A stretch of 64,000 nucleotides of DNA from Giardia intestinalis (GCA_000002435.2 CM018792.1), one strand, 5' to 3'; positions 28,068 through 42,601 are shown, counted from the first letter of the stretch. Numbers and translations are program-made. Notes: generated by a model not told the origin, from the letters alone.

Positions 28068-28360
28068 AAGGGCAAGAGGATTTTATTTTTAGAAATGCTA
28101 AGGAAGAGATCCACAGCTATGAGCGGATACAAAGAAGCAGACGCTTCATTGAAGGCTGGGATAAAAACAATCTTATTATAGAAATAGATGCATATATTGG
28201 CTGACTTGTGAGACAGCTTGGGCTAAGTTACCACTAGTGAATAATAATATCCATTCAAATGTACATATTCTTTGTATGACCCATTCCCTCCTTACTGTCT
28301 TCTTTGCCCTCTTGTTGTGAGGGTTGGGGCACGGAGTTGGCAGGTACAAAATTATCTCTA

Positions 28361-29254
28361 ATGAGCACCCAGCTGGAGAAGCTTGCAGACATTATTCTTT
28401 CGCTAGTAGGTCAAGCAGGGTTTACAACGGTGGATACAACTGCAGTGCACCGCCTCATCAAATTTGTGCAGGACTTTTGTCTTTCGGCACACAGACCAAT
28501 TAGGCTGAACTTCTCCGATGTAATCGATCGCTCTCTAACGGTATTTAATGAGGAAAAGGGGATCAGGAACAAGACAGTGGAAGACTTCTTTTACTCCTTC
28601 AGCGCGCTTCTCTTTAAGACGCCCCTGGGACGCCTGGCCACTACTCGTCTTTTCGAAACCCTACAGGCTCAGCAAGGGCCAGCGAAGGGCTTTGATTCCT
28701 TGGGAGGGTTTCGCATACAGGAACCCCTAGATGTTCTCCAGATAAAACTGACTCCTGACAACCCCAGTGATACCGTCCAAGCAGCCATCATACAGGACCA
28801 AAGTTCAGAGTACACCCCATGTGGCTTTCGCAATTGCAATATTCACCCCGTTTTCACATCAACCACCGAAAACTACACACTGACCCCAGAGCACAGCATT
28901 TCAAGCGATGAAAACAACGTCACCCACAGGCCTTACACTATTGAGAATCTCTCAGATAGCTCAGATAACGATGATGCCTTGCCAATGATCCAGGCGGGGC
29001 CTTTCAAAACCGATCAAAACCCTCCCTGGAATCAGCTTCCGCTGGACCTCATTGAGGAGCCAGCCATATGCTTTCTCTGCGATAGCTTAATGGCACAGTT
29101 CTCTAAAAGCGCCCCGCTTCCAACTGTCGCATCACAATTTGACAAGATTGAGCCGTTCCTTATTCCTCCACCGACGGCCTCTCACAGAGCATTCGGTGGA
29201 TATGGCCCTGCCCTTAACCAGCTCCTGGAAAGAAACTGTCAGTTGGGAACATGA
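28361..29254 (+). CDS. Hypothetical protein (~297 aa)
   Basis: The track ORF starts at a TTG at 28304. The first ATG is at 28361 (MSTQLEKLADIIL…). An AGTGAAT poly(A)-like signal follows at 29281-29287. Confidence 0.45.
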   Translation: MSTQLEKLADIILSLVGQAGFTTVDTTAVHRLIKFVQDFCLSAHRPIRLNFSDVIDRSLTVFNEEKGIRNKTVEDFFYSFSALLFKTPLGRLATTRLFETLQAQQGPAKGFDSLGGFRIQEPLDVLQIKLTPDNPSDTVQAAIIQDQSSEYTPCGFRNCNIHPVFTSTTENYTLTPEHSISSDENNVTHRPYTIENLSDSSDNDDALPMIQAGPFKTDQNPPWNQLPLDLIEEPAICFLCDSLMAQFSKSAPLPTVASQFDKIEPFLIPPPTASHRAFGGYGPALNQLLERNCQLGT

Positions 29255-29280
29255 CTGGATTGGAGCATGAACTAAATAAA

Positions 29281-29301: not shown

Positions 29302-32300
29302 TCACGGCGGAGGTGTGATTGTTATTTTTGTTTGGTCTAAAGTTGCGGTCCCACCGGTCATCGCTAAATTACAGTTGTTAGTTGTAATTGTACCTCCTGG
29401 GTCTAACTTTATCTTGTCAGTGCTGGAATCTGTGACTGTGACTTGTTTGGTGAAGTTTGCTGGTACATGCACTGTTACCTTAGTTCCACTGGTGAAGTCT
29501 ATGACGTCAGCATTATTGCTTTTAACTACTGTGTTGATTGCAAAGGAAGCAGGTGTACCGGGGGGATTGCTTGTTTTGGCAGCATAAACGATGTCGAAGT
29601 CGGGATGGGCTCCCAGTGAAAGGTTTGTGCTTACTGCTACTGCAGGTGCAGCCAGGCTCGTGGATATGACCGCTGTATCTATCGTTGCTGTCTTTACATT
29701 GCTAATAGTCCCCGTCACTGCTTGCCCAGCAGTTGCCACCGTGAGAAATGTAACAGAGGGTGCTCCAGCTGGACAAAGGTTGATGCTCTTTGTTATGCAC
29801 AGTTCATCTATTGAATTGGAGGCAACTTGTGTGGTAACTTTGTTCGTTTTGACCTCTGCTTCTGTAATAGTAGTTGTATCCCCTGTGCCCGTTTTAGTTA
29901 ATTGCAAAGTATTATCTGTAAAGGTGTATGTTCCTGGAGAACCTGATTGTGCAGCTTTGAATACTACGTTCCCTGAATTTGTGACATCTATAGTTTTAGA
30001 CAAGGCAATATTACCACTTATAGTTACGCCCGTGTCAGTCACCGATAGGACCTCAGCATTTGCTCCATCCTGATAGGCTAACTTCTTTTTAGTGATTACT
30101 CCATCTGTTCCAACGACTAAGTTGTAAGGTCCATTTGGTGCTGTACCAACTGCACTAAGTTGCGTCTGCACTACTTGTGTACCGATCGTCGCAGTATCAG
30201 CGGTAATGCTCGTAGCTTTCAATGCTCCCGTGGTCAAGGTAGTCGTGGTGAGGTCGTTCAGTCCAGTTATGCTTGGGATGGTGGCAGACCCTGTAACGTC
30301 CAATTTTCCAGATACGGATAGATCGGTAAAGGTGGCGCTGGTCGCCGTGAGCTTCCCGTTTATTATCAAGTCCTGGAACGTTGCTTGGACATTGGTCATC
30401 TGCATGTCTAGGTCTGCGGTCTTGAGGTAATTGAATTGTCCGTTGCAACTGTATGTCGTCGGGGTCAAACACGCGGCTGGAGGAGCAGTCACAAAAATGC
30501 TTGAGAGGCTCTCGACGTTGAGCATGCCCCATAACCTAGACTCCATGGTAACGGAGCTCAGATAGGCATCCTTTAATAGCTCTCCTTTACGAGGATAAAA
30601 GGATGGATATCTTGTAGCACGCTCATATACAGATTTAAGCTCTGCGTAGCCATCTAATGTATCGAGGAGAGTGTCTGTTACTGGGCACGACACAATCTTG
30701 GTGGCTTGGCAGTGATTTTGAATATCAACTAGAAGACGCTTGTACTCTTCCAACGATAGATGCGTCCACTCGTTTCCGTCTAGATGGCTGCGATTCTGTG
30801 TTCCTGAGACAATCCTGCGCACCTCTGCTGTGAAATTGTCTGGTGCCAAACCCTGGAGAGTCTTCACACGGAACGTAGTGGTGACGGCAGATGGACCCAG
30901 TACTGACAAGTTGCTAACAACAAGATTTTTCACAGTTAGGGTGCTGCCGATTTGTGCGTACAAACAGATGACTAATATAAAGGTTATCAATAGCAAGATG
31001 GCCATAATTACAATGACAGTCCAAAGAAGCAGATGCCGCCCACAACACGTATCGTCGTCCACGCAGCTGCAGCACTCCTCTGCCTCACTTTGCAAGTGCT
31101 TACAGTATCCAGATGCACAGCCACCACCACAATCGCAGCCAGAGCACGGACAGCAATAGCACTGTCTATCATGTGTCAGAGGTACGTTCTTTAGAGCTTC
31201 AGAGTGCTCTAGAGTATACATGGGAGCAGGTGTGTTCGGTTTGAGGGGCTCTGTATCGGAGTACACTGTCTGCTGTGCAACAGATACAGGGGGGTTGATA
31301 GGGGAGACATGCTCTTGACGAGGTGCAGCAGAAGGAATTGCCAGCTGCTTGCGGAGCTCTGGGGCAAATGTCTTTGTATCCATGTAAAAGATGATCCGGC
31401 AGGGACCAATTCGTTGGCGAAGCTGGTTACCAGGGACGCCTTCTCTGTATGCAGCAACCTTCTTAGTCTTCAGAAATGTTAGTTCTGATACCTTATCACG
31501 TGCTTCGGCGCGCAGCGTGCTTCCCATGAAAGAGTACAGCACATAATCATCATTAGGCCCCCGTTTGTCTTGGGTGTTAATAAACACCGTGTAGCTCTCC
31601 ATGCGCCTTTCTGCATCTTCCATAGAATCGTCCGTGACCTTACTACTCATGAATGCCGTGTTATAGACACGATAATCTGGAGCTAACTGCTGATGCTGAT
31701 TGATAGGAAAGGATGAGTAGGACAGGGTAGTACTTACTGATAAAAGAGGGCGCTGGACGACTGTCAAAAGACCTGTAGCCGCGCACACTGGGCATGGGAT
31801 GGATTGGATGTTGAAATTGAGTACTGCAGTCCCGCTAGTGTCGAATTGGAGGAAGTTGAGCAAAGTATGATGAGATAGCTTCCCACAACCACCACAGCGG
31901 AAGCTATGGTCAAACATATTTGTCCTGAGGGTTTCTGGGAGTGAATGCACTAACTTGGAGATGACTCGTTCGTGTTGTTCAGCAGATTCTATCGGAGAAA
32001 GATCTAAATGTGAAACTAGGGGAGCCAGAGACAGAAGAACGTCATCTGCAGAAGCGTTATCACACACAGACTGCAGCAGGCTATACCAAATTCTAGCAGC
32101 TGGGGTATGATCCCCGGCAACATCTGTCTGAACGAGAAGATGATCGCCGCCGTGAATCTCAATTGTGTTGACGAGAACCCGAAAGAACCCACCCAAAATG
32201 CCCTGTTCATCCCCTGTAAGTGTGAATGTGCGTAGGATTCGGGTATTCGCCGCAGTACTTGCTCTGGAATGACTGAACATGACTAAATAAAACGCAAATT

Positions 32301-35300
32301 CACTAGTTCTACTCTTGACTACCTCTGAAAAGGCCCCTTCAAGTGTGTTTTCGTTACTAGACTCCTCTTCATTGAAGAGGCTTTGGTCGTATTCAACATT
32401 CTTAAGAGACAGCCCCATGAAAGATGTTATCCGTGTAAAGGTTGTGAAGCTGTGCAGAATATTAAAGTGAGAGATACCGTACTCCACAATCCTGTCATCA
32501 ACGTACTGATCTGGAACGCCGTCATTGAGCATACTACTGAGGATGACAGTCCCGTCGCCCTGGCCCGTCACAAATGTTGGAATCTGGTCTAGAAGTTCAG
32601 AGTACTCCTGTATTGGTTTGGGGTACACAACGTGTATAGGAGTTTGTCGCCCGTAGGTTAATAAACTGATGTACCGAAAATCCTTTGGATTGGCTGGATA
32701 GACAATAGGCTTGACTTGCCGCTGAGCAGAGAAGCTCCAGCACTTATCAAATTTAGGAAATATCAGGGCGTCTAGGGACCCCTTCACCGAAACCTTATCT
32801 ATTAGCTCTGCTATGGGGCGCTCTGAAACAGATTTGCGAAGGGTCAGATCAGACCACGGATTTGCATAGGGGATTAGGATGATACGGTCTTTTTCTTTGT
32901 CCTTTTTCCCTGGTGTGCCGGTCAGATCCAGGTTAGAGATTTCTTCTGTGCTGGGAGCATACTCCATGATTTCCGAGGCTCTATCAGACAAGGACAGGGA
33001 AGTACGTCTGCTCGTACGTTTGGAGTTTCCCCGAGACTCCTTGTCTGGTCTCGGCTTGGCAGCAGCTTTTCCGTGAGTATCAGAAGTCGAGTCGGCACTT
33101 TTCACTCGCTTTTTATGATTAGCTCTACAATGCTTAGAGTCACTATATGCACTCCCCGTGCTCGACACTATATTGTCAGTTTCCTCTGTAAAGCTGTTCG
33201 AGCCGAGCTCTGCACAACTATCAACGTCCATGCTATCTTCTTCCCCAGTAATATGGGTAAAGGAATGGTCTTGCGAGCCCTGATTGTCTGTGTAGCCATC
33301 AGTGTTAGGCGATGAACTTGAGGAGTTATAGTTGATAAACTTCTCTACTACAGATGTCCTTGCATCTGTTGATGCACGCCTGGCCTTAACATAGGCCGAG
33401 GAGACGCGCTCCTTCACGTAGATGGACGACGGATCCATCTTCTTTACAATCGATGCTATGCTGTCTGGGGTGTCGTTGAGGAGCACACCCTTTGACAGAT
33501 GTTTCGGTTCGCCTGTCTCTACCTTCTTTATCTTTTTCTCCCGTCGTAGCTTCGGAAGATCTGGGTAGTTCAATATGCACTTTTTTGACTTGACTATTCG
33601 TCCGTTGTAGTTGATGTGATGCGGTATATTTTCATACTCTGCTGCTAGCTCATCCATCAACATGGTTATCTCGCTATACCGTCGCAGGTGAGGATACTCA
33701 GACCAACGTATAACGCGCCCGCTGGTACCGTGGAATCCACCAGAGGTCTCTTTGTAGAAGGTCAAGAAGTCACTATCTTCTTTTATAGTAACAGTGTTCC
33801 CTTTGAAAATAAAATCAGGGTGAGAAAATATGTTCGCTAGCTTTCTGGTCTCATACGATCGAGGAATCACGGATCCATGTTCGTTAGAGTAGGTAACCCA
33901 TGGAGAGTAGCATTCCCATGAAAAGATTGGGTTTCCTGTGTGCTGATTTTGAACAACGCTGAGCTCATGATCGTTAACCAATTGGAAGGATGAACTGGTA
34001 ATGGATAGCGAATTCTGTTGGAGTGGACGTACTTTAATTGGCGAAAGCTCTGGCTCTGTCGTATTAGTCCTAGGGTCTGTCTCTTCACTACCGTTTGTCA
34101 CGTGTGTGTCCAGTACGTCAGTAAAATCATCTGTTTGCCCTGGTAGCCTTTGTAAAGTATTCTCTTCCTTTGGCTGAAGAGAACCCGGCATTGTCAGTGA
34201 AGTGTTGTCATAGTGGATCATTATGGAATCAAGCAGTGACCCACAGTTAATATCTAGTTGATAGATGGTAGCATCTTGTTGCAAAGGACAATTTTTATAC
34301 TGATGCTCTGAACTTACGGCGAGAATGGTAGCTGTTGCGCCCTGTGGCAATGAGGTTGTAGGGACCTCTACAATTGTGGTACGTGGACTCTCCTCCGCTG
34401 GCACAACGTCCTCGATTATCTTGGTCAGAGCAGAGGCATACTTGAAGTCATAAAGAGAACTAACAACACCTATTTCCTCTGGCGTTGCGAGTGCTTCCAG
34501 CTTCTTGAAAGCACGATTGAACGCATACTCTGGGAACAGGGTTCCACGACGACGCTTTTTTAAATGCAGAACCCCGTTGATTTCTATTTGCACGGCCTTT
34601 CTATGACAGCAATTTTGAAGAAGCGTTAGCGACCTCTCCACATCTTTTGTCAAAAGAGACGGGTCCTGCTGAATTTTCTCCAGAATACAGTATGCAAGAT
34701 TGGGCATTTTCTTCCTGTATGGAGTAAGATTCAAATGTATCTTAAATAGAGGTTGCTTTTCATTGTGCTGTGAGTCTGCAGAGTCCTTCATAAGAGTGGC
34801 TAGCTCTGTGCAAGTATCACTAGTAGCGTCGATATTGCTAGTAACGTCACTGCCTGGATCATAATTATTGCTGTCGTTATCACCGCCACTACTAGTACGC
34901 GGACAGAGCAGGCGCTTGACGTATATGTTAGTGCTGATGAACTTACTGCTGCAGGGGCTGCCCCCCGGACGTCCTGCCATAGAGATGATGGAGCCCGACG
35001 CGCCTTGTATCCCTCGCCCACAAGACATAGGTATAGGAAGCCGGAGACAATAGCCTGTTAGAAATCCTGCCATAGAATAACCACCCACTCCGTCAAATGG
35101 GACACTGATTGCTGCAAACCGTGAAATATCGTCATTCCAGTCGGGGTACGTCTGCATGTATGCCTGAACTACCAACCCTCCGAGTGAATGCGCAATTACC
35201 GTCAATCTCTGGCCACCGTTGCGACACCGCATGGCCTTGATACATTTTCGTAGATCCTCCTGAAGTTTGGGGTGTCCGATCTCCTGTCGCCAGTCATAGG

Positions 35301-35679
35301 AAAATGCGTCTATAGTGACGCCCTCCTCATAACCGCAATACTTCTTGAACCATTGCAGTAATGTTTCATAATAGTACCCTATTCGCCGCTTACGCAGCAT
35401 GCGCTCGAACCCTTTGAGTGTGAGTAAACGACGGGCCCCCTCGAGCCCCGGGTAAGGCGTAACATCGACATACTTCGCAACATGTGATTCTACCCACAAA
35501 GTTTCTAAATCTGGGGCACACCACAAGTCGTTGGCCACCTTCGTGGCTATCATCATCCGCGGAATAATCTGAGAATTAACCCATGCATCTTCTGCGTGAG
35601 CTGATATGCGTGATTTGGCACGCATTTTACTTCCGACTGTTCCATGAATGAGTAATACCGGCGGCGGCTTTGTTACCAT
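29302..35679 (-). CDS. Giant membrane protein (2125 aa): N-terminal alpha/beta-hydrolase lipase-like domain, a long Ser-rich middle, a Cys-cluster plus TM segment, and a C-terminal Thr-rich beta-repeat region
   Basis: True ATG at 35677-35679 with an AT-rich upstream region. The N-terminus has PVLLIHG plus a nucleophile-elbow AHSLGG (GxSxG), as in LCAT/PGAP1/DUF676-type lipases. The segment CYCCPCSGCDCGGGCASGYCKHL…CCSCVDDDTCCGRH is followed by a TM helix LLLWTVIVIMAILLLITFILVICLY (about 30960-31040). The last roughly 380 aa are Thr/Ser/Val/Asn/Gly-rich with alternating T-x-T patterns and end in ITITPPP. Confidence 0.6.
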   Translation of the reverse strand: MVTKPPPVLLIHGTVGSKMRAKSRISAHAEDAWVNSQIIPRMMIATKVANDLWCAPDLETLWVESHVAKYVDVTPYPGLEGARRLLTLKGFERMLRKRRIGYYYETLLQWFKKYCGYEEGVTIDAFSYDWRQEIGHPKLQEDLRKCIKAMRCRNGGQRLTVIAHSLGGLVVQAYMQTYPDWNDDISRFAAISVPFDGVGGYSMAGFLTGYCLRLPIPMSCGRGIQGASGSIISMAGRPGGSPCSSKFISTNIYVKRLLCPRTSSGGDNDSNNYDPGSDVTSNIDATSDTCTELATLMKDSADSQHNEKQPLFKIHLNLTPYRKKMPNLAYCILEKIQQDPSLLTKDVERSLTLLQNCCHRKAVQIEINGVLHLKKRRRGTLFPEYAFNRAFKKLEALATPEEIGVVSSLYDFKYASALTKIIEDVVPAEESPRTTIVEVPTTSLPQGATATILAVSSEHQYKNCPLQQDATIYQLDINCGSLLDSIMIHYDNTSLTMPGSLQPKEENTLQRLPGQTDDFTDVLDTHVTNGSEETDPRTNTTEPELSPIKVRPLQQNSLSITSSSFQLVNDHELSVVQNQHTGNPIFSWECYSPWVTYSNEHGSVIPRSYETRKLANIFSHPDFIFKGNTVTIKEDSDFLTFYKETSGGFHGTSGRVIRWSEYPHLRRYSEITMLMDELAAEYENIPHHINYNGRIVKSKKCILNYPDLPKLRREKKIKKVETGEPKHLSKGVLLNDTPDSIASIVKKMDPSSIYVKERVSSAYVKARRASTDARTSVVEKFINYNSSSSSPNTDGYTDNQGSQDHSFTHITGEEDSMDVDSCAELGSNSFTEETDNIVSSTGSAYSDSKHCRANHKKRVKSADSTSDTHGKAAAKPRPDKESRGNSKRTSRRTSLSLSDRASEIMEYAPSTEEISNLDLTGTPGKKDKEKDRIILIPYANPWSDLTLRKSVSERPIAELIDKVSVKGSLDALIFPKFDKCWSFSAQRQVKPIVYPANPKDFRYISLLTYGRQTPIHVVYPKPIQEYSELLDQIPTFVTGQGDGTVILSSMLNDGVPDQYVDDRIVEYGISHFNILHSFTTFTRITSFMGLSLKNVEYDQSLFNEEESSNENTLEGAFSEVVKSRTSEFAFYLVMFSHSRASTAANTRILRTFTLTGDEQGILGGFFRVLVNTIEIHGGDHLLVQTDVAGDHTPAARIWYSLLQSVCDNASADDVLLSLAPLVSHLDLSPIESAEQHERVISKLVHSLPETLRTNMFDHSFRCGGCGKLSHHTLLNFLQFDTSGTAVLNFNIQSIPCPVCAATGLLTVVQRPLLSVSTTLSYSSFPINQHQQLAPDYRVYNTAFMSSKVTDDSMEDAERRMESYTVFINTQDKRGPNDDYVLYSFMGSTLRAEARDKVSELTFLKTKKVAAYREGVPGNQLRQRIGPCRIIFYMDTKTFAPELRKQLAIPSAAPRQEHVSPINPPVSVAQQTVYSDTEPLKPNTPAPMYTLEHSEALKNVPLTHDRQCYCCPCSGCDCGGGCASGYCKHLQSEAEECCSCVDDDTCCGRHLLLWTVIVIMAILLLITFILVICLYAQIGSTLTVKNLVVSNLSVLGPSAVTTTFRVKTLQGLAPDNFTAEVRRIVSGTQNRSHLDGNEWTHLSLEEYKRLLVDIQNHCQATKIVSCPVTDTLLDTLDGYAELKSVYERATRYPSFYPRKGELLKDAYLSSVTMESRLWGMLNVESLSSIFVTAPPAACLTPTTYSCNGQFNYLKTADLDMQMTNVQATFQDLIINGKLTATSATFTDLSVSGKLDVTGSATIPSITGLNDLTTTTLTTGALKATSITADTATIGTQVVQTQLSAVGTAPNGPYNLVVGTDGVITKKKLAYQDGANAEVLSVTDTGVTISGNIALSKTIDVTNSGNVVFKAAQSGSPGTYTFTDNTLQLTKTGTGDTTTITEAEVKTNKVTTQVASNSIDELCITKSINLCPAGAPSVTFLTVATAGQAVTGTISNVKTATIDTAVISTSLAAPAVAVSTNLSLGAHPDFDIVYAAKTSNPPGTPASFAINTVVKSNNADVIDFTSGTKVTVHVPANFTKQVTVTDSSTDKIKLDPGGTITTNNCNLAMTGGTATLDQTKITITPPP

Positions 35680-35993
35680 GTATTAAACTTTTTATCAACG
35701 ATATCCATGTACTACATTTTCAACTTCATATGAAATCCAAAGATAGATATAAGCAAACTAGTAGGTAGCATACCTCATTCTTAAGGCAGTGTTCATAACA
35801 TCATATAAAGACAGGACACTACGCTAGACATTAATCTATGGGATTATTGCTTAGTTCATCGCGAAAATGAACATAATCTAGGCATCAATTCCTCTTGTGG
35901 CCAGCTCAATCTTGCATATATTTAAGCAGGAAGCATGATTTGAGGGCTGATTTGCTTTTCAGTTAAGTCTCTTTGATTTTCGGAGCTAGTGAA

Positions 35994-36728
35994 ATGCTCT
36001 ACCTTCTGCTTTTGCTCCCTTCTAGCTTTCTACTAAACACTTTCCCAAACACCCCGTGCCTCAGCAGTGTCCGTATAGTGGTTCGTGAAGAGGATCTGTG
36101 TTTTGAGGTCTCCCATGCATCTTCCCCAGAATGCCCTCTCAATGGACTGGACACTGCCACCGCTAAGCTTCGAGTGATGCCATACAATGAATCCAAGAGT
36201 GCATATGTAATAAATCTCGGAACTGTCCCCATGAGCGTCAGCAAGTTCTGTCACCCGGGGCGGCACTACGATGTCCTCGAATCGAAGCTTCTGTTTTCTT
36301 TAGACAATGAAGAATGGCTTGTGTGCAAGAAAAAATCCCTCAAGATCCTCAAGACCATCTTCAGGGAGGGAACCGGCCAACAAGTCGATGAAACCATGTC
36401 AGGTAAAGTCCGTCGAAGCATATGGTACGAGCCTATCGATGGCTCAGCTCCCCAGGCAGTACTGATGCAGATGGAAGATGATGATTGGAGCTACTACGAC
36501 TTCAAATTCAGTCCGGTACCTGGCATTCATGACGCTATCCTGACGATGCGAGTGGGTGAAGGGGCAGTATTCTACATTCCGTACCAAGAGGCGTTCGGGG
36601 AGCATGGCTCAGACACAATACCCCCTAGAGCCCAGGTGATCATGCGATTCGAGATCTTCGAGGCATTTCCCAGCACAGAGGAGGAGATCATATATGAACA
36701 GCCCCGTAATGACGAGGATGACGATTAG
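35994..36728 (+). CDS. FKBP-type peptidyl-prolyl cis-trans isomerase-like protein with an N-terminal signal peptide and an acidic C-terminus (~244 aa)
   Basis: The track ORF starts at a TTG at 35973. The ATG at 35994 gives MLYLLLLLPSSFLLNTFP, which is signal-peptide-like. The C-terminal GIHDAILTMRVGEGAVFYIPYQEAFGEHG…IPPRAQVIMRFEIFE matches the FKBP motif pattern (GWEEGV.xMxVGE…IPP.A.LvF.vEL). It ends in acidic NDEDDD. An AGTAAAT signal overlaps the stop at 36727-36733. Confidence 0.5.
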   Translation: MLYLLLLLPSSFLLNTFPNTPCLSSVRIVVREEDLCFEVSHASSPECPLNGLDTATAKLRVMPYNESKSAYVINLGTVPMSVSKFCHPGRHYDVLESKLLFSLDNEEWLVCKKKSLKILKTIFREGTGQQVDETMSGKVRRSIWYEPIDGSAPQAVLMQMEDDDWSYYDFKFSPVPGIHDAILTMRVGEGAVFYIPYQEAFGEHGSDTIPPRAQVIMRFEIFEAFPSTEEEIIYEQPRNDEDDD

Positions 36729-41653: not shown

Positions 41654-42601
41654 ATGCCAAAGATTAATGAACTCGAGTGGAACACCGCCCTAGCATTCGC
41701 CAACGTTGACGTAGACCAAGTTGCAAAGGCCGATGCCAACAACATCTTTAAGCTCACTCAGGAGATTGAGGCACTCGTCAAAGAGGACAACGCGAGCTTG
41801 GCCAAATTCAAGATCAAGGAGGTTGGGAACCTGAAGGACCGCACGGCCGTCCTAAATATGGTGAAGATGTATCTCTCTACAGTCAAGCAGGGGCTTTCGT
41901 CCATCAAAAAGTTCACCGAGAAGGAGCTTAACGAGCAGCTCATCGTCGCCATGCAGTCAATCATCCTTGCGTCCAGATCTCTTCCTTGCGAGAAGCTTCA
42001 CCCAGTAGTCAAGCTGTTCGGGTCCATCTATGGCAAAAAGTTCATTGACCAGGCCCTCAGACTACCCTCGTCCGATCAGGCTGGCGGAAAGGATGCAAAC
42101 CCCAAAGATCCTCTAACAAAGGCTGATGACCAGCTCCGGTTCCTTCTCTTCCAGAACGAGCTGACGTCGGAGAGGGTCGATTTGGAGTACAACAAGATAC
42201 GGATGCGTGTTATGAAAATCCCGCGACAGCAGGTGCCTGCTCCCGTCCCAGTGGCCTCCGGACCATCCGGGGCAGGGCCTATCGATTCTCTGATGCCCAG
42301 CAGCGGCGGCGGCGATGCCTTCAATGGCAATGGTGGCGATGCCGGCAATATGGATTCTGACGGAGGTATGCCATCCCTTCTCCCCATCCCTGTATCCAAT
42401 GACGACTACAATGAAACGTGTTTCCCTCCTGTTAATAATAACGTGGACGATCCGTTTCCCACAAGGGATATCTGTCAGATAGACAACAAATCAGATGCAT
42501 TCAGTGCTGGGCCTGCTAACCCAGACCCCTCTCCAGATGACAAGCCCCTAACAATGGACTCCTCCATCCAGGACATGCTCAGAAAGCTGAACAACTACTG
42601 A
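41654..42601 (+). CDS. Hypothetical protein, possibly IST1-like (ESCRT-III-related), 315 aa
   Basis: True ATG at 41654. The block LIVAMQSIILASRSLP.CEKLHPVVKLFGSIYGKKFIDQA resembles the IST1 core ESVSTLIWAAPRLQSEVAELKIVADQLCAKYSKEYGK. The tail is Pro/Gly-rich, with a C-terminal DSSIQDMLRKLNNY. This is a weak call. Confidence 0.25.
   Translation: MPKINELEWNTALAFANVDVDQVAKADANNIFKLTQEIEALVKEDNASLAKFKIKEVGNLKDRTAVLNMVKMYLSTVKQGLSSIKKFTEKELNEQLIVAMQSIILASRSLPCEKLHPVVKLFGSIYGKKFIDQALRLPSSDQAGGKDANPKDPLTKADDQLRFLLFQNELTSERVDLEYNKIRMRVMKIPRQQVPAPVPVASGPSGAGPIDSLMPSSGGGDAFNGNGGDAGNMDSDGGMPSLLPIPVSNDDYNETCFPPVNNNVDDPFPTRDICQIDNKSDAFSAGPANPDPSPDDKPLTMDSSIQDMLRKLNNY

Follow-up and report, generated by a model that had tools for sequence, protein, structure and literature searches.

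A split LCAT-type lipase fused to a predicted type II membrane protein with a putative dead USP fold in GiLCAT4 of Giardia intestinalis

The subject of this analysis is a minus-strand open reading frame (ORF) at positions 29302-35679 of a 64,000-nucleotide stretch of Giardia intestinalis DNA (GCA_000002435.2 CM018792.1), hereafter the window. The ORF (6378 nucleotides, ATG to stop, 2125 amino acids) is GiLCAT4 (XP_001704693.1) of G. intestinalis WB, whose published gene at chr4 2602151-2608528(-) has equal length and strand. GiLCAT4 is a fusion of two genes, and its product is probably one chimeric, single-pass membrane protein of type II (N-in/C-out), arisen by in-frame fusion of two neighbouring genes. 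The first module (residues 1-1133) would be a divergent cytosolic serine phospholipase or acyltransferase of the LCAT/LPLA2 family with an intact catalytic triad, its fold interrupted by a lineage-specific insertion of ~750-800 residues at the position of LPLA2 220-311. The second module (1134-2125) would comprise a dead USP fold, a Pro-rich linker, a Cys cluster, a transmembrane (TM) helix, a juxtamembrane motif and a Thr-rich, beta-prone ectodomain, and its family appears to be present in Giardia and in related, gene-dense protists that use the standard code. An earlier sequence-only reading had called the protein a mosaic, and this is true in a stronger sense than was then meant. The layout is as follows, with the basis of each call in brackets.

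29302..35679, minus: whole ORF GiLCAT4 (ORF check, published gene, orthologues)
34978..35679, minus: N-terminal hydrolase part, residues 1-234, elbow AHSLGG with Ser165 at window 35176-35193 (Pfam PF02450, LPLA2 4x90)
32725..34977, minus: insertion in the hydrolase fold, residues 235-985, ~750-800 residues (flanked by LPLA2-aligned stretches)
32395..32724, minus: C-terminal hydrolase part, residues 986-1095, GQGDGTV (Asp1042) and ISHFNIL (His1071) (LPLA2 profile alignment)
32281..32394, minus: acidic, Ser-rich junction linker, residues 1096-1133, ending in SEFAFYLV before M1134 (sequence)
31339..32280, minus: predicted catalytically dead USP-fold (peptidase C19-like) domain, residues 1134-1447, zinc ribbon C1262/C1265/C1296/C1299 (AlphaFold2 model and Foldseek)
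31162..31338, minus: Pro-rich, low-confidence linker, residues 1448-1506 (model confidence ~30; the segment is Pro-rich in homologues too)
31042..31161, minus: juxtamembrane Cys cluster, residues 1507-1546, 13 Cys (sequence count)
30958..31032, minus: single TM helix, residues 1550-1574 (Kyte-Doolittle, AlphaFold2)
30880..30957, minus: conserved, putatively extracytosolic juxtamembrane motif IGSTLTVKNLVVSNLSVLGPS, residues ~1575-1600 (family alignment)
30400..30879, minus: membrane-proximal ectodomain, residues ~1601-1760 (four predicted helices; C1657/C1665, C1737/C1745)
29305..30399, minus: distal ectodomain rich in Thr, Val, Ala, Gly and Asn, residues 1761-2125, with C1961/C1969 and C2103 (composition)

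The sequence-only reading had taken the stretch for a single ORF of 2125 residues from a diplomonad, and on both counts the published gene agrees with it. Full-length orthologues of 2123-2148 residues, which it had asked for, were found in four other Giardia lineages (99, 87, 74 and 69% identity). The ORF is unbroken in at least four further lineages, and an artefact was rejected on this ground. The lipase head of GiLCAT4 is already known and annotated: the gene is one of four named LCAT-domain genes, has a very long branch in the tree, and is supported by expressed sequence tags, serial analysis of gene expression, RNA-seq and mass spectrometry (PMC5573378). A literature search with the gene name, its accession and the P15 locus tag turned up that paper alone.

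We regard GiLCAT4 as a fusion because its halves are separate genes in a relative, the start Met of its stand-alone homologues aligns with M1134, and one lineage carries the gene split. An exhaustive HMMER search with residues 1100-2125 returned six proteins of 736-909 residues (E 1e-13 to 6e-25, 24-30% identity), each with its start Met aligned to M1134. All were found in Logan assemblies of Sequence Read Archive (SRA) runs, four in SRR31929897, one in SRR14944320 and one on a short contig. Their common plan is a conserved N-terminal domain of ~310 residues with two CxxC pairs, followed by a Pro-rich linker, 2-5 Cys, one TM helix, the motif N-x-T-L-V-V-x-N-L-V-V and a tail rich in Thr, Asn, Ala and Ile. 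By BLASTP, the Giardia half aligned with one of them, P0008, over 818 residues, through the TM helix and ~375 residues into the ectodomain, to ~residue 1950; this homology covers just the first ~190 residues of the distal tail region. The C-terminal half of GiLCAT4 belongs, on these alignments and the predicted topology, to a family of type II membrane proteins not described before.

On contig SRR31929897_35086, P0008, its fellow family member P0009 and a stand-alone LCAT4-like gene are three separate genes. P0008 and P0009 lie on one strand and the LCAT gene on the opposite one, ~4.4 kb beyond P0009 and ~7.5 kb from P0008. The LCAT4-like gene (941-1071 residues, Pfam LCAT 50 bits) matches GiLCAT4 at residues 7-276 (40%), 306-376, 625-713 and 940-1092 (38%), with identities ranging from 27 to 41%; it retains the catalytic Ser, Asp and His, lacks a TM segment, and ends at a stop codon of its own, 7 residues past the equivalent of residue 1092. 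P0008 is likely the positional counterpart of the C-terminal half of GiLCAT4, since the two have a convergent 3' neighbour in common.

The homologue loci are gene-dense, use TAA, TAG and TGA as stop codons and have some neighbours in common with the window, which points to Giardia-like organisms rather than hexamitid diplomonads as their source. A scan of JGI (Joint Genome Institute) metagenome contigs found no relatives. The SRR31929897 organism has at least four pseudo-USP membrane paralogues, two of them nearly in tandem, and the stand-alone LCAT4-like gene is on the same contig. The family loci of this run, given without strand, are the following.

L002 6569-19868; L003 10001-12493; L004 10001-12649 (= P0013): family loci of SRR31929897 (HMMER homologues)

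An Ist1 (ESCRT-III-related) gene adjoins family members in loci L002 and L005, and an Ist1 gene is also in the window, at 41654-42601, ~6 kb from GiLCAT4.

At the junction itself, the peptide SEFAFYLVMFSHSR spans the boundary of the two modules, and the DNA reads ACT AGT GAA TTT GCG TTT TAT TTA GTC ATG (window 32281-32320, minus strand). The reading frame continues past this point in the lineage of the window and in four more, five in total, and in many independent assemblies; the other lineages have TAT TTA GTC/ATT ATG at the junction. One contig from run ERR3333380 (Logan ERR3333380_900, locus L006, 4520-4545), ~80% identical to the P0004 lineage, has TAT TAG TC ATG there, one T fewer. It carries an LCAT ORF of 1168 residues and, 2 nucleotides later, an ORF that starts at the equivalent of M1134 and runs on without a stop for the 862 codons that remain on the contig. 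A random assembly indel exactly at the junction is unlikely. The split arrangement is, however, a single observation, unreplicated in the collection.

The hydrolase head was expected from the motifs PVLLIHG and AHSLGG, which are indeed at residues 7-13 and 163-168, and its assignment as an LCAT-like alpha/beta-hydrolase is borne out: Pfam LCAT (PF02450) matched residues 103-234 at 45.4 bits (cut-off 21; E 8.6e-12). The best solved relative, human LPLA2 (4x90), aligned to residues 83-219, with AHSLGG (S165) on AHSMGN. Further along, a second stretch aligned weakly and in collinear order, with GQGDGTV (residues 1039-1045) opposite GDGDGTV of LPLA2; searched alone against the PDB, this Asp/His segment remained below significance. 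Deletion of the intervening residues raised the LPLA2 score from 25 to 35 bits, and a profile that included the distant orthologue reached LPLA2 at E 6.6e-11. In the second stretch, profile 1030-1087 aligned to LPLA2 312-372 (conditional E 4.2e-5), and SHFNIL fell on EHIEML, the His motif of LPLA2 (GSEHIEML). We take S165, D327 and H359 to be the catalytic residues of LPLA2. S165, D1042 and H1071 of GiLCAT4 are invariant in all orthologues, the distant stand-alone one included. By alignment, the head is a complete LCAT/LPLA2-type hydrolase with the triad S165-D1042-H1071 and a fold split by an insertion.

The fold is interrupted between ~residue 220-235 and residue 985-1030, because two LPLA2-aligned stretches flank ~750-800 residues and the Asp/His segment is collinear and invariant. 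The insertion replaces the ~90-residue segment 220-311 of LPLA2, which is presumably its cap/lid region. It is partly conserved and partly variable and low in complexity: blocks 306-376 and 551-750 are conserved between assemblages, and the distant stand-alone orthologue, whose shorter insertion is in the same place, still shows blocks 306-376 and 625-713. Pfam searches made region by region with the insertion, the Asp/His segment, the pseudo-USP domain and the tail, as well as with the six distant homologues, gave no match besides the LCAT head. The proposal that a Ser-rich linker of more than 1000 residues follows the head does not hold: Ser is just 9-12% of this stretch, which contains the insertion, the Asp/His segment and the pseudo-USP domain. 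No signal peptide and no hydrophobic segment was found in residues 1-1133.

The elbow AHSxG, the Asp motif GDGTV and the His motif SH-x-x-hydrophobic, in collinear order, are what GiLCAT4 has in common with LPLA2/PLA2G15 and LCAT. However, LPLA2 and LCAT have a signal peptide and are secreted or lysosomal, whereas GiLCAT4 has none and would be cytosolic; they have a compact catalytic domain of ~400 residues with a short cap/lid, whereas ~800 residues lie between the aligned halves of GiLCAT4; and only GiLCAT4 is fused to a membrane protein, on its very long tree branch (PMC5573378). GiLCAT1-3, of the same Pfam family and genome, are assigned to the Lands cycle (PMC5573378). Compared with these enzymes (772-1058 residues from published coordinates), GiLCAT4 is two to three times as long and forms a distinct branch, and its C-terminal half is not described there (PMC5573378).

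The second module begins with what is, according to structural modelling, a catalytically dead USP fold with a four-Cys zinc ribbon (residues 1134-1447). This is the best-conserved part of GiLCAT4 between assemblages. AlphaFold2 modelling of residues 1134-2125 from a 10-sequence alignment gave a predicted local distance difference test score (pLDDT) of 50-85 across 1149-1446, and in a Foldseek search of the PDB with the domain model, the best 50 matches were all USP catalytic domains, including USP18 (E 2.7e-9), USP30, USP2, USP12/46, USP47, USP28 and the pseudo-UCH domain of Pan2. Against PDB sequences, the best match of the family profile was the zinc ribbon of USPL1, and it was weak (E 0.13). 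The ribbon residues C1262, C1265 and C1296 are kept in all seven family lineages and C1299 in six of the seven. Outside the ribbon the family alignment has no conserved Cys, and it has no conserved His in any column; the domain would therefore be a pseudoenzyme. In partly conserved columns Giardia shows H, Q and Y, and mapping by eye puts the Cys box at GILGGFFRV and the His box at DDYVLY, in place of GGHYVVY. Pfam UCH models (PF00443 / PF13423) matched neither the domain (threshold E <= 10) nor any of the nine family sequences (threshold E <= 1).

Pseudoenzymes of this fold have precedents in the Pan2 pseudo-UCH domain and Sad1/USP39. These are soluble subunits of RNA-processing complexes, whereas the Giardia domain is the N-terminus of a predicted type II membrane protein and, in contrast to them, escapes the Pfam UCH models. 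USPs can also be membrane-anchored, USP30 by an N-terminal TM at mitochondria and USP19 by a C-terminal TM at the endoplasmic reticulum. However, these two are active and have no large extracytosolic domain, while in GiLCAT4 the triad is absent from the USP-fold domain and ~550 residues lie beyond the membrane.

The TM segment, present in all six distant homologues, scores 3.52 on the Kyte-Doolittle scale over 19 residues, is the sole segment of the protein above 1.5, and is modelled as a helix (pLDDT ~70). We infer an N-in/C-out orientation, with lipase and pseudo-USP domain cytosolic and the tail outside, because the protein lacks a signal peptide and its only TM helix comes after 1549 residues of cytosolic-type domains (hydrolase and zinc-ribbon USP fold), because the ectodomain has three invariant C-x7-C pairs and C2103, and because the tails of paralogues are dense in N-x-S/T sequons. 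In P0013 the tail has 33 such sequons (6.8 per 100 residues) and the N-terminal side 3; in P0011 the ectodomain has 15 (3.1 per 100 residues), and the cytosolic sides of both proteins have ~0.8 per 100 residues, which suggests heavy N-glycosylation of the two ectodomains. The sequence-only reading had allowed either the lipase or the tail to be outside; of these, the tail is the part we place there.

Beyond the membrane, the juxtamembrane motif is the best-conserved ectodomain segment of the family (consensus N-x-T-L-V-V-x-N-L-V-V-x-N, with T, V and G invariant). The membrane-proximal ectodomain that follows is mostly missing from distant homologues; both AlphaFold2 models give it helices at 1615-1629, 1643-1660, 1669-1690 and 1698-1722 (pLDDT 50-74), and the C-x7-C pairs C1657/C1665 and C1737/C1745 are invariant across assemblages. 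In the ~365 C-terminal residues, Thr makes up 20%, Val and Ala 10% each, Gly 8% and Glu 1%, and Arg is absent.

The sequence-only reading had proposed that this Thr-rich tail is an adhesin-like parallel beta-helix or beta-solenoid. We hold this to be plausible, though at somewhat less than even chances. The beta-prone, almost uncharged composition agrees with it, and the tails of distant homologues are periodic (lag 5, z 3.3-4.5 in four of six; lags 21-22, z 2.6-4.0), which fits, in the family's sequences, a solenoid of ~21 residues per turn. However, the tails of three Giardia assemblages, examined over 45 lags, show no periodicity (maximum z 2.1), and structure prediction, from alignments of 5-10 sequences that are too shallow to tell a solenoid from disorder, was of low confidence: in two AlphaFold runs, pLDDT was ~30 across more than 80% of the tail, and a solenoid-like coil of ~70 residues at ~1774-1843 (pLDDT 44-54) in one model was absent from the tail-only model. 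In addition, no Pfam repeat family matched any family member, six distant homologues having been scanned. Autotransporter passengers, tapirins, bactofilin and pentapeptide-repeat proteins are solenoids, whereas the GiLCAT4 tail is without Pfam match and without detectable periodicity. A canonical pentapeptide-repeat protein was rejected, as the homologues have pentads of the form large hydrophobic, x, small, x, x, a register opposite to that of the A(D/N)Lxx repeat, and Pfam gave no match.

An extended, mostly unstructured and glycosylated stalk, similar to a mucin, is a further reading of the tail, and one we regard as rather unlikely. Very low AlphaFold2 confidence, Thr/Ser-rich composition, fast divergence between assemblages (48-84% identity) and the sequon-dense tails of paralogues are all in its favour. 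Yet the shallow alignment can by itself account for low confidence, and ~33% Ile, Leu, Val and Ala with just 5% Pro is unlike mucin domains; the Cys pairs are invariant, and hydrophobic patterns are periodic in homologues.

On the cytosolic side, the description of a dense Cys cluster directly before a single TM helix proved accurate. There are 13 Cys in 40 residues, against 2.2% Cys in the whole protein, and the cluster ends (CC 1545-1546) ~3-4 residues before the helix. All Giardia lineages have 12-14 Cys here, and distant homologues have a shorter cluster, 2-5 Cys at the equivalent position, within ~10 residues of the cytosolic TM end. The cluster is probably S-acylated, since in every homologue its Cys abut the cytosolic TM end, the classic position for this modification. 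It is doubtful that it forms a metallothionein-like Zn- or Cu-binding module instead. C-x-C, C-C and C-x-x-C spacings among the 13 Cys would suit metal binding, and with its acidic stretch and a reach of 43 residues from the membrane the cluster goes beyond what acylation needs; however, relatives retain just a few Cys, always close to the membrane, and searches gave no match to any metal-binding family.

Whether the locus makes one protein or two must be weighed at the junction. The alternative is that it still makes two, a soluble LCAT4 lipase of ~1130 residues polyadenylated at the junction and a pseudo-USP membrane protein of ~990 residues started at M1134 from an internal AT-rich promoter, with the 2125-residue read-through product minor or absent. 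M1134 is conserved and aligned with the start Met of every stand-alone homologue, and AT content reaches 68% in the 40 nucleotides before its codon, a value within the top 3.5% of windows in the ORF. The ORF's only sense-strand match to AGTRAAY, which we take to be the Giardia poly(A) signal consensus, is at window 32298-32304, 8 codons upstream of M1134. These may be relics of a two-gene state (poly(A) signal and promoter) or a sign of separate products, and in ERR3333380 TAG TC divides the gene into two intact ORFs. However, the frame crosses the junction unbroken in assemblages A, B and E as well as a fourth lineage, in many independent assemblies, the linker indel is a multiple of 3, one AGTRAAY match is about the chance expectation in 6.4 kb, and the split contig is single. 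We consider two proteins improbable. As a separate observation, the 11-mer TTTTATTTAGT at the junction (32284-32294, minus strand) recurs at ~29266-29276, ~25 nucleotides past the ORF stop codon; the complement of this second copy overlaps a plus-strand AGTGAAT just downstream of the convergent neighbour gene at 28304-29254, which may be coincidence.

Several points weigh against the single chimeric membrane protein that we favour. The persistence of the AT-rich run and of the only AGTRAAY upstream of M1134, together with one lineage that carries the halves as separate ORFs, makes separate products possible, and the single polypeptide of 235 kDa is a predicted product. The USP assignment comes from a model of moderate confidence (pLDDT 50-85, TM-score ~0.5) with no Pfam UCH match, the positive-inside rule is clear for some homologues and not decisive for the Giardia sequence, and the relatives are known from SRA assemblies. 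The enzyme activity and the S-acylation, like the ubiquitin binding and the localisation, are predictions.

With one chimeric protein as the favoured product, the fusion would give a permanent membrane anchor to a lipase that is soluble in relatives. Anchored in this way, the lipase could act on glycerophospholipids in the cytosolic leaflet by deacylation or transacylation, which would agree with Giardia's dependence on Lands-cycle remodelling. An S-acylated Cys cluster would hold the linker against the bilayer, the pseudo-USP domain probably serves for binding, with ubiquitin or a ubiquitin-like protein as a possible partner, and the ectodomain would be exposed at the surface or in a lumen. 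Overall, we infer a membrane-tethered phospholipid-remodelling enzyme on the cytosolic leaflet, to which the second module would add a beta-rich, exposed ectodomain and perhaps the ability to bind a ubiquitin-like protein.

A wider idea can be offered only as speculation with a small chance of being right. Giardia and its relatives may own a so far unnoticed family of type II surface proteins that resemble receptors, with variable, glycosylated, beta-rich ectodomains and a conserved, perhaps ubiquitin-reading, cytosolic pseudo-USP domain, and the single member remaining in G. intestinalis may have captured an LCAT-type lipase by a change of 1 nucleotide. Such a transmembrane device would couple phospholipid remodelling in the cytosolic leaflet to what happens at the parasite surface or within a vacuole lumen, with the Cys cluster as a possible acylation switch.

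Giardia is unable to make most lipids de novo and relies on remodelled host phospholipids, and its LCAT-like enzymes are candidate drug targets (PMC5573378). Our results can help to place the long-branch GiLCAT4 among them as a gene with an intact catalytic triad, whose product is probably at the cytosolic membrane face. Half of it is a separate gene family that is unrecognised by Pfam and absent from the main text of the Giardia ubiquitin-pathway inventory, which was searched with Pfam UCH models and whose main text names no lecithin or LCAT protein (PMC7029713). The fusion also gives a prediction of the Rosetta-stone type, that the lipase and the pseudo-USP membrane protein cooperate in relatives that keep them separate. 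Moreover, the locus is a clean example of how near neighbouring genes in a very compact eukaryotic genome stand to fusing or splitting. As far as the searchable literature shows, the complete but split hydrolase, the hidden pseudo-USP domain, the type II family and the fusion 1 nucleotide from the two-gene state are new.

Elsewhere in the window, five head-to-tail minus-strand ORFs of 584-765 residues occupy 240-10074.

240-2102, 2115-4016, 4029-5933, 5946-7700, 7777-10074, minus: five ORFs of the array (ORF calls)

This region is a tandem array of variant-specific surface proteins (VSPs): the three of its five ORFs that were scanned are all Giardia VSPs (Pfam VSP, E 1e-42 to 1e-44). Together with database proteins almost identical to GiLCAT4, the array marks the DNA as that of G. 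intestinalis. VSPs and high-cysteine membrane proteins resemble GiLCAT4 in being single-pass, surface-type proteins of the same organism with Cys-rich elements, and VSP genes are in the same window. However, VSPs are type I proteins with a CxxC-rich ectodomain and a CRGKA tail, whereas GiLCAT4 would be type II with its Cys cluster cytosolic; a VSP or high-cysteine membrane protein was rejected for GiLCAT4 on this opposite orientation and the absence of a Pfam VSP match. The array region has a strongly negative GC skew. Next to it, window 10001-12000 is 64% GC, against 45-53% across most of the window, and contains a minus-strand ORF of 442 residues (10165-11493) without Pfam match. The divergent upstream neighbour of GiLCAT4, at 35973-36728 on the plus strand, is an ORF similar to FKBP-type peptidyl-prolyl isomerases (Pfam FKBP_C, E 8e-6), and it is retained beside GiLCAT4 in other Giardia lineages (loci L006 and L007).

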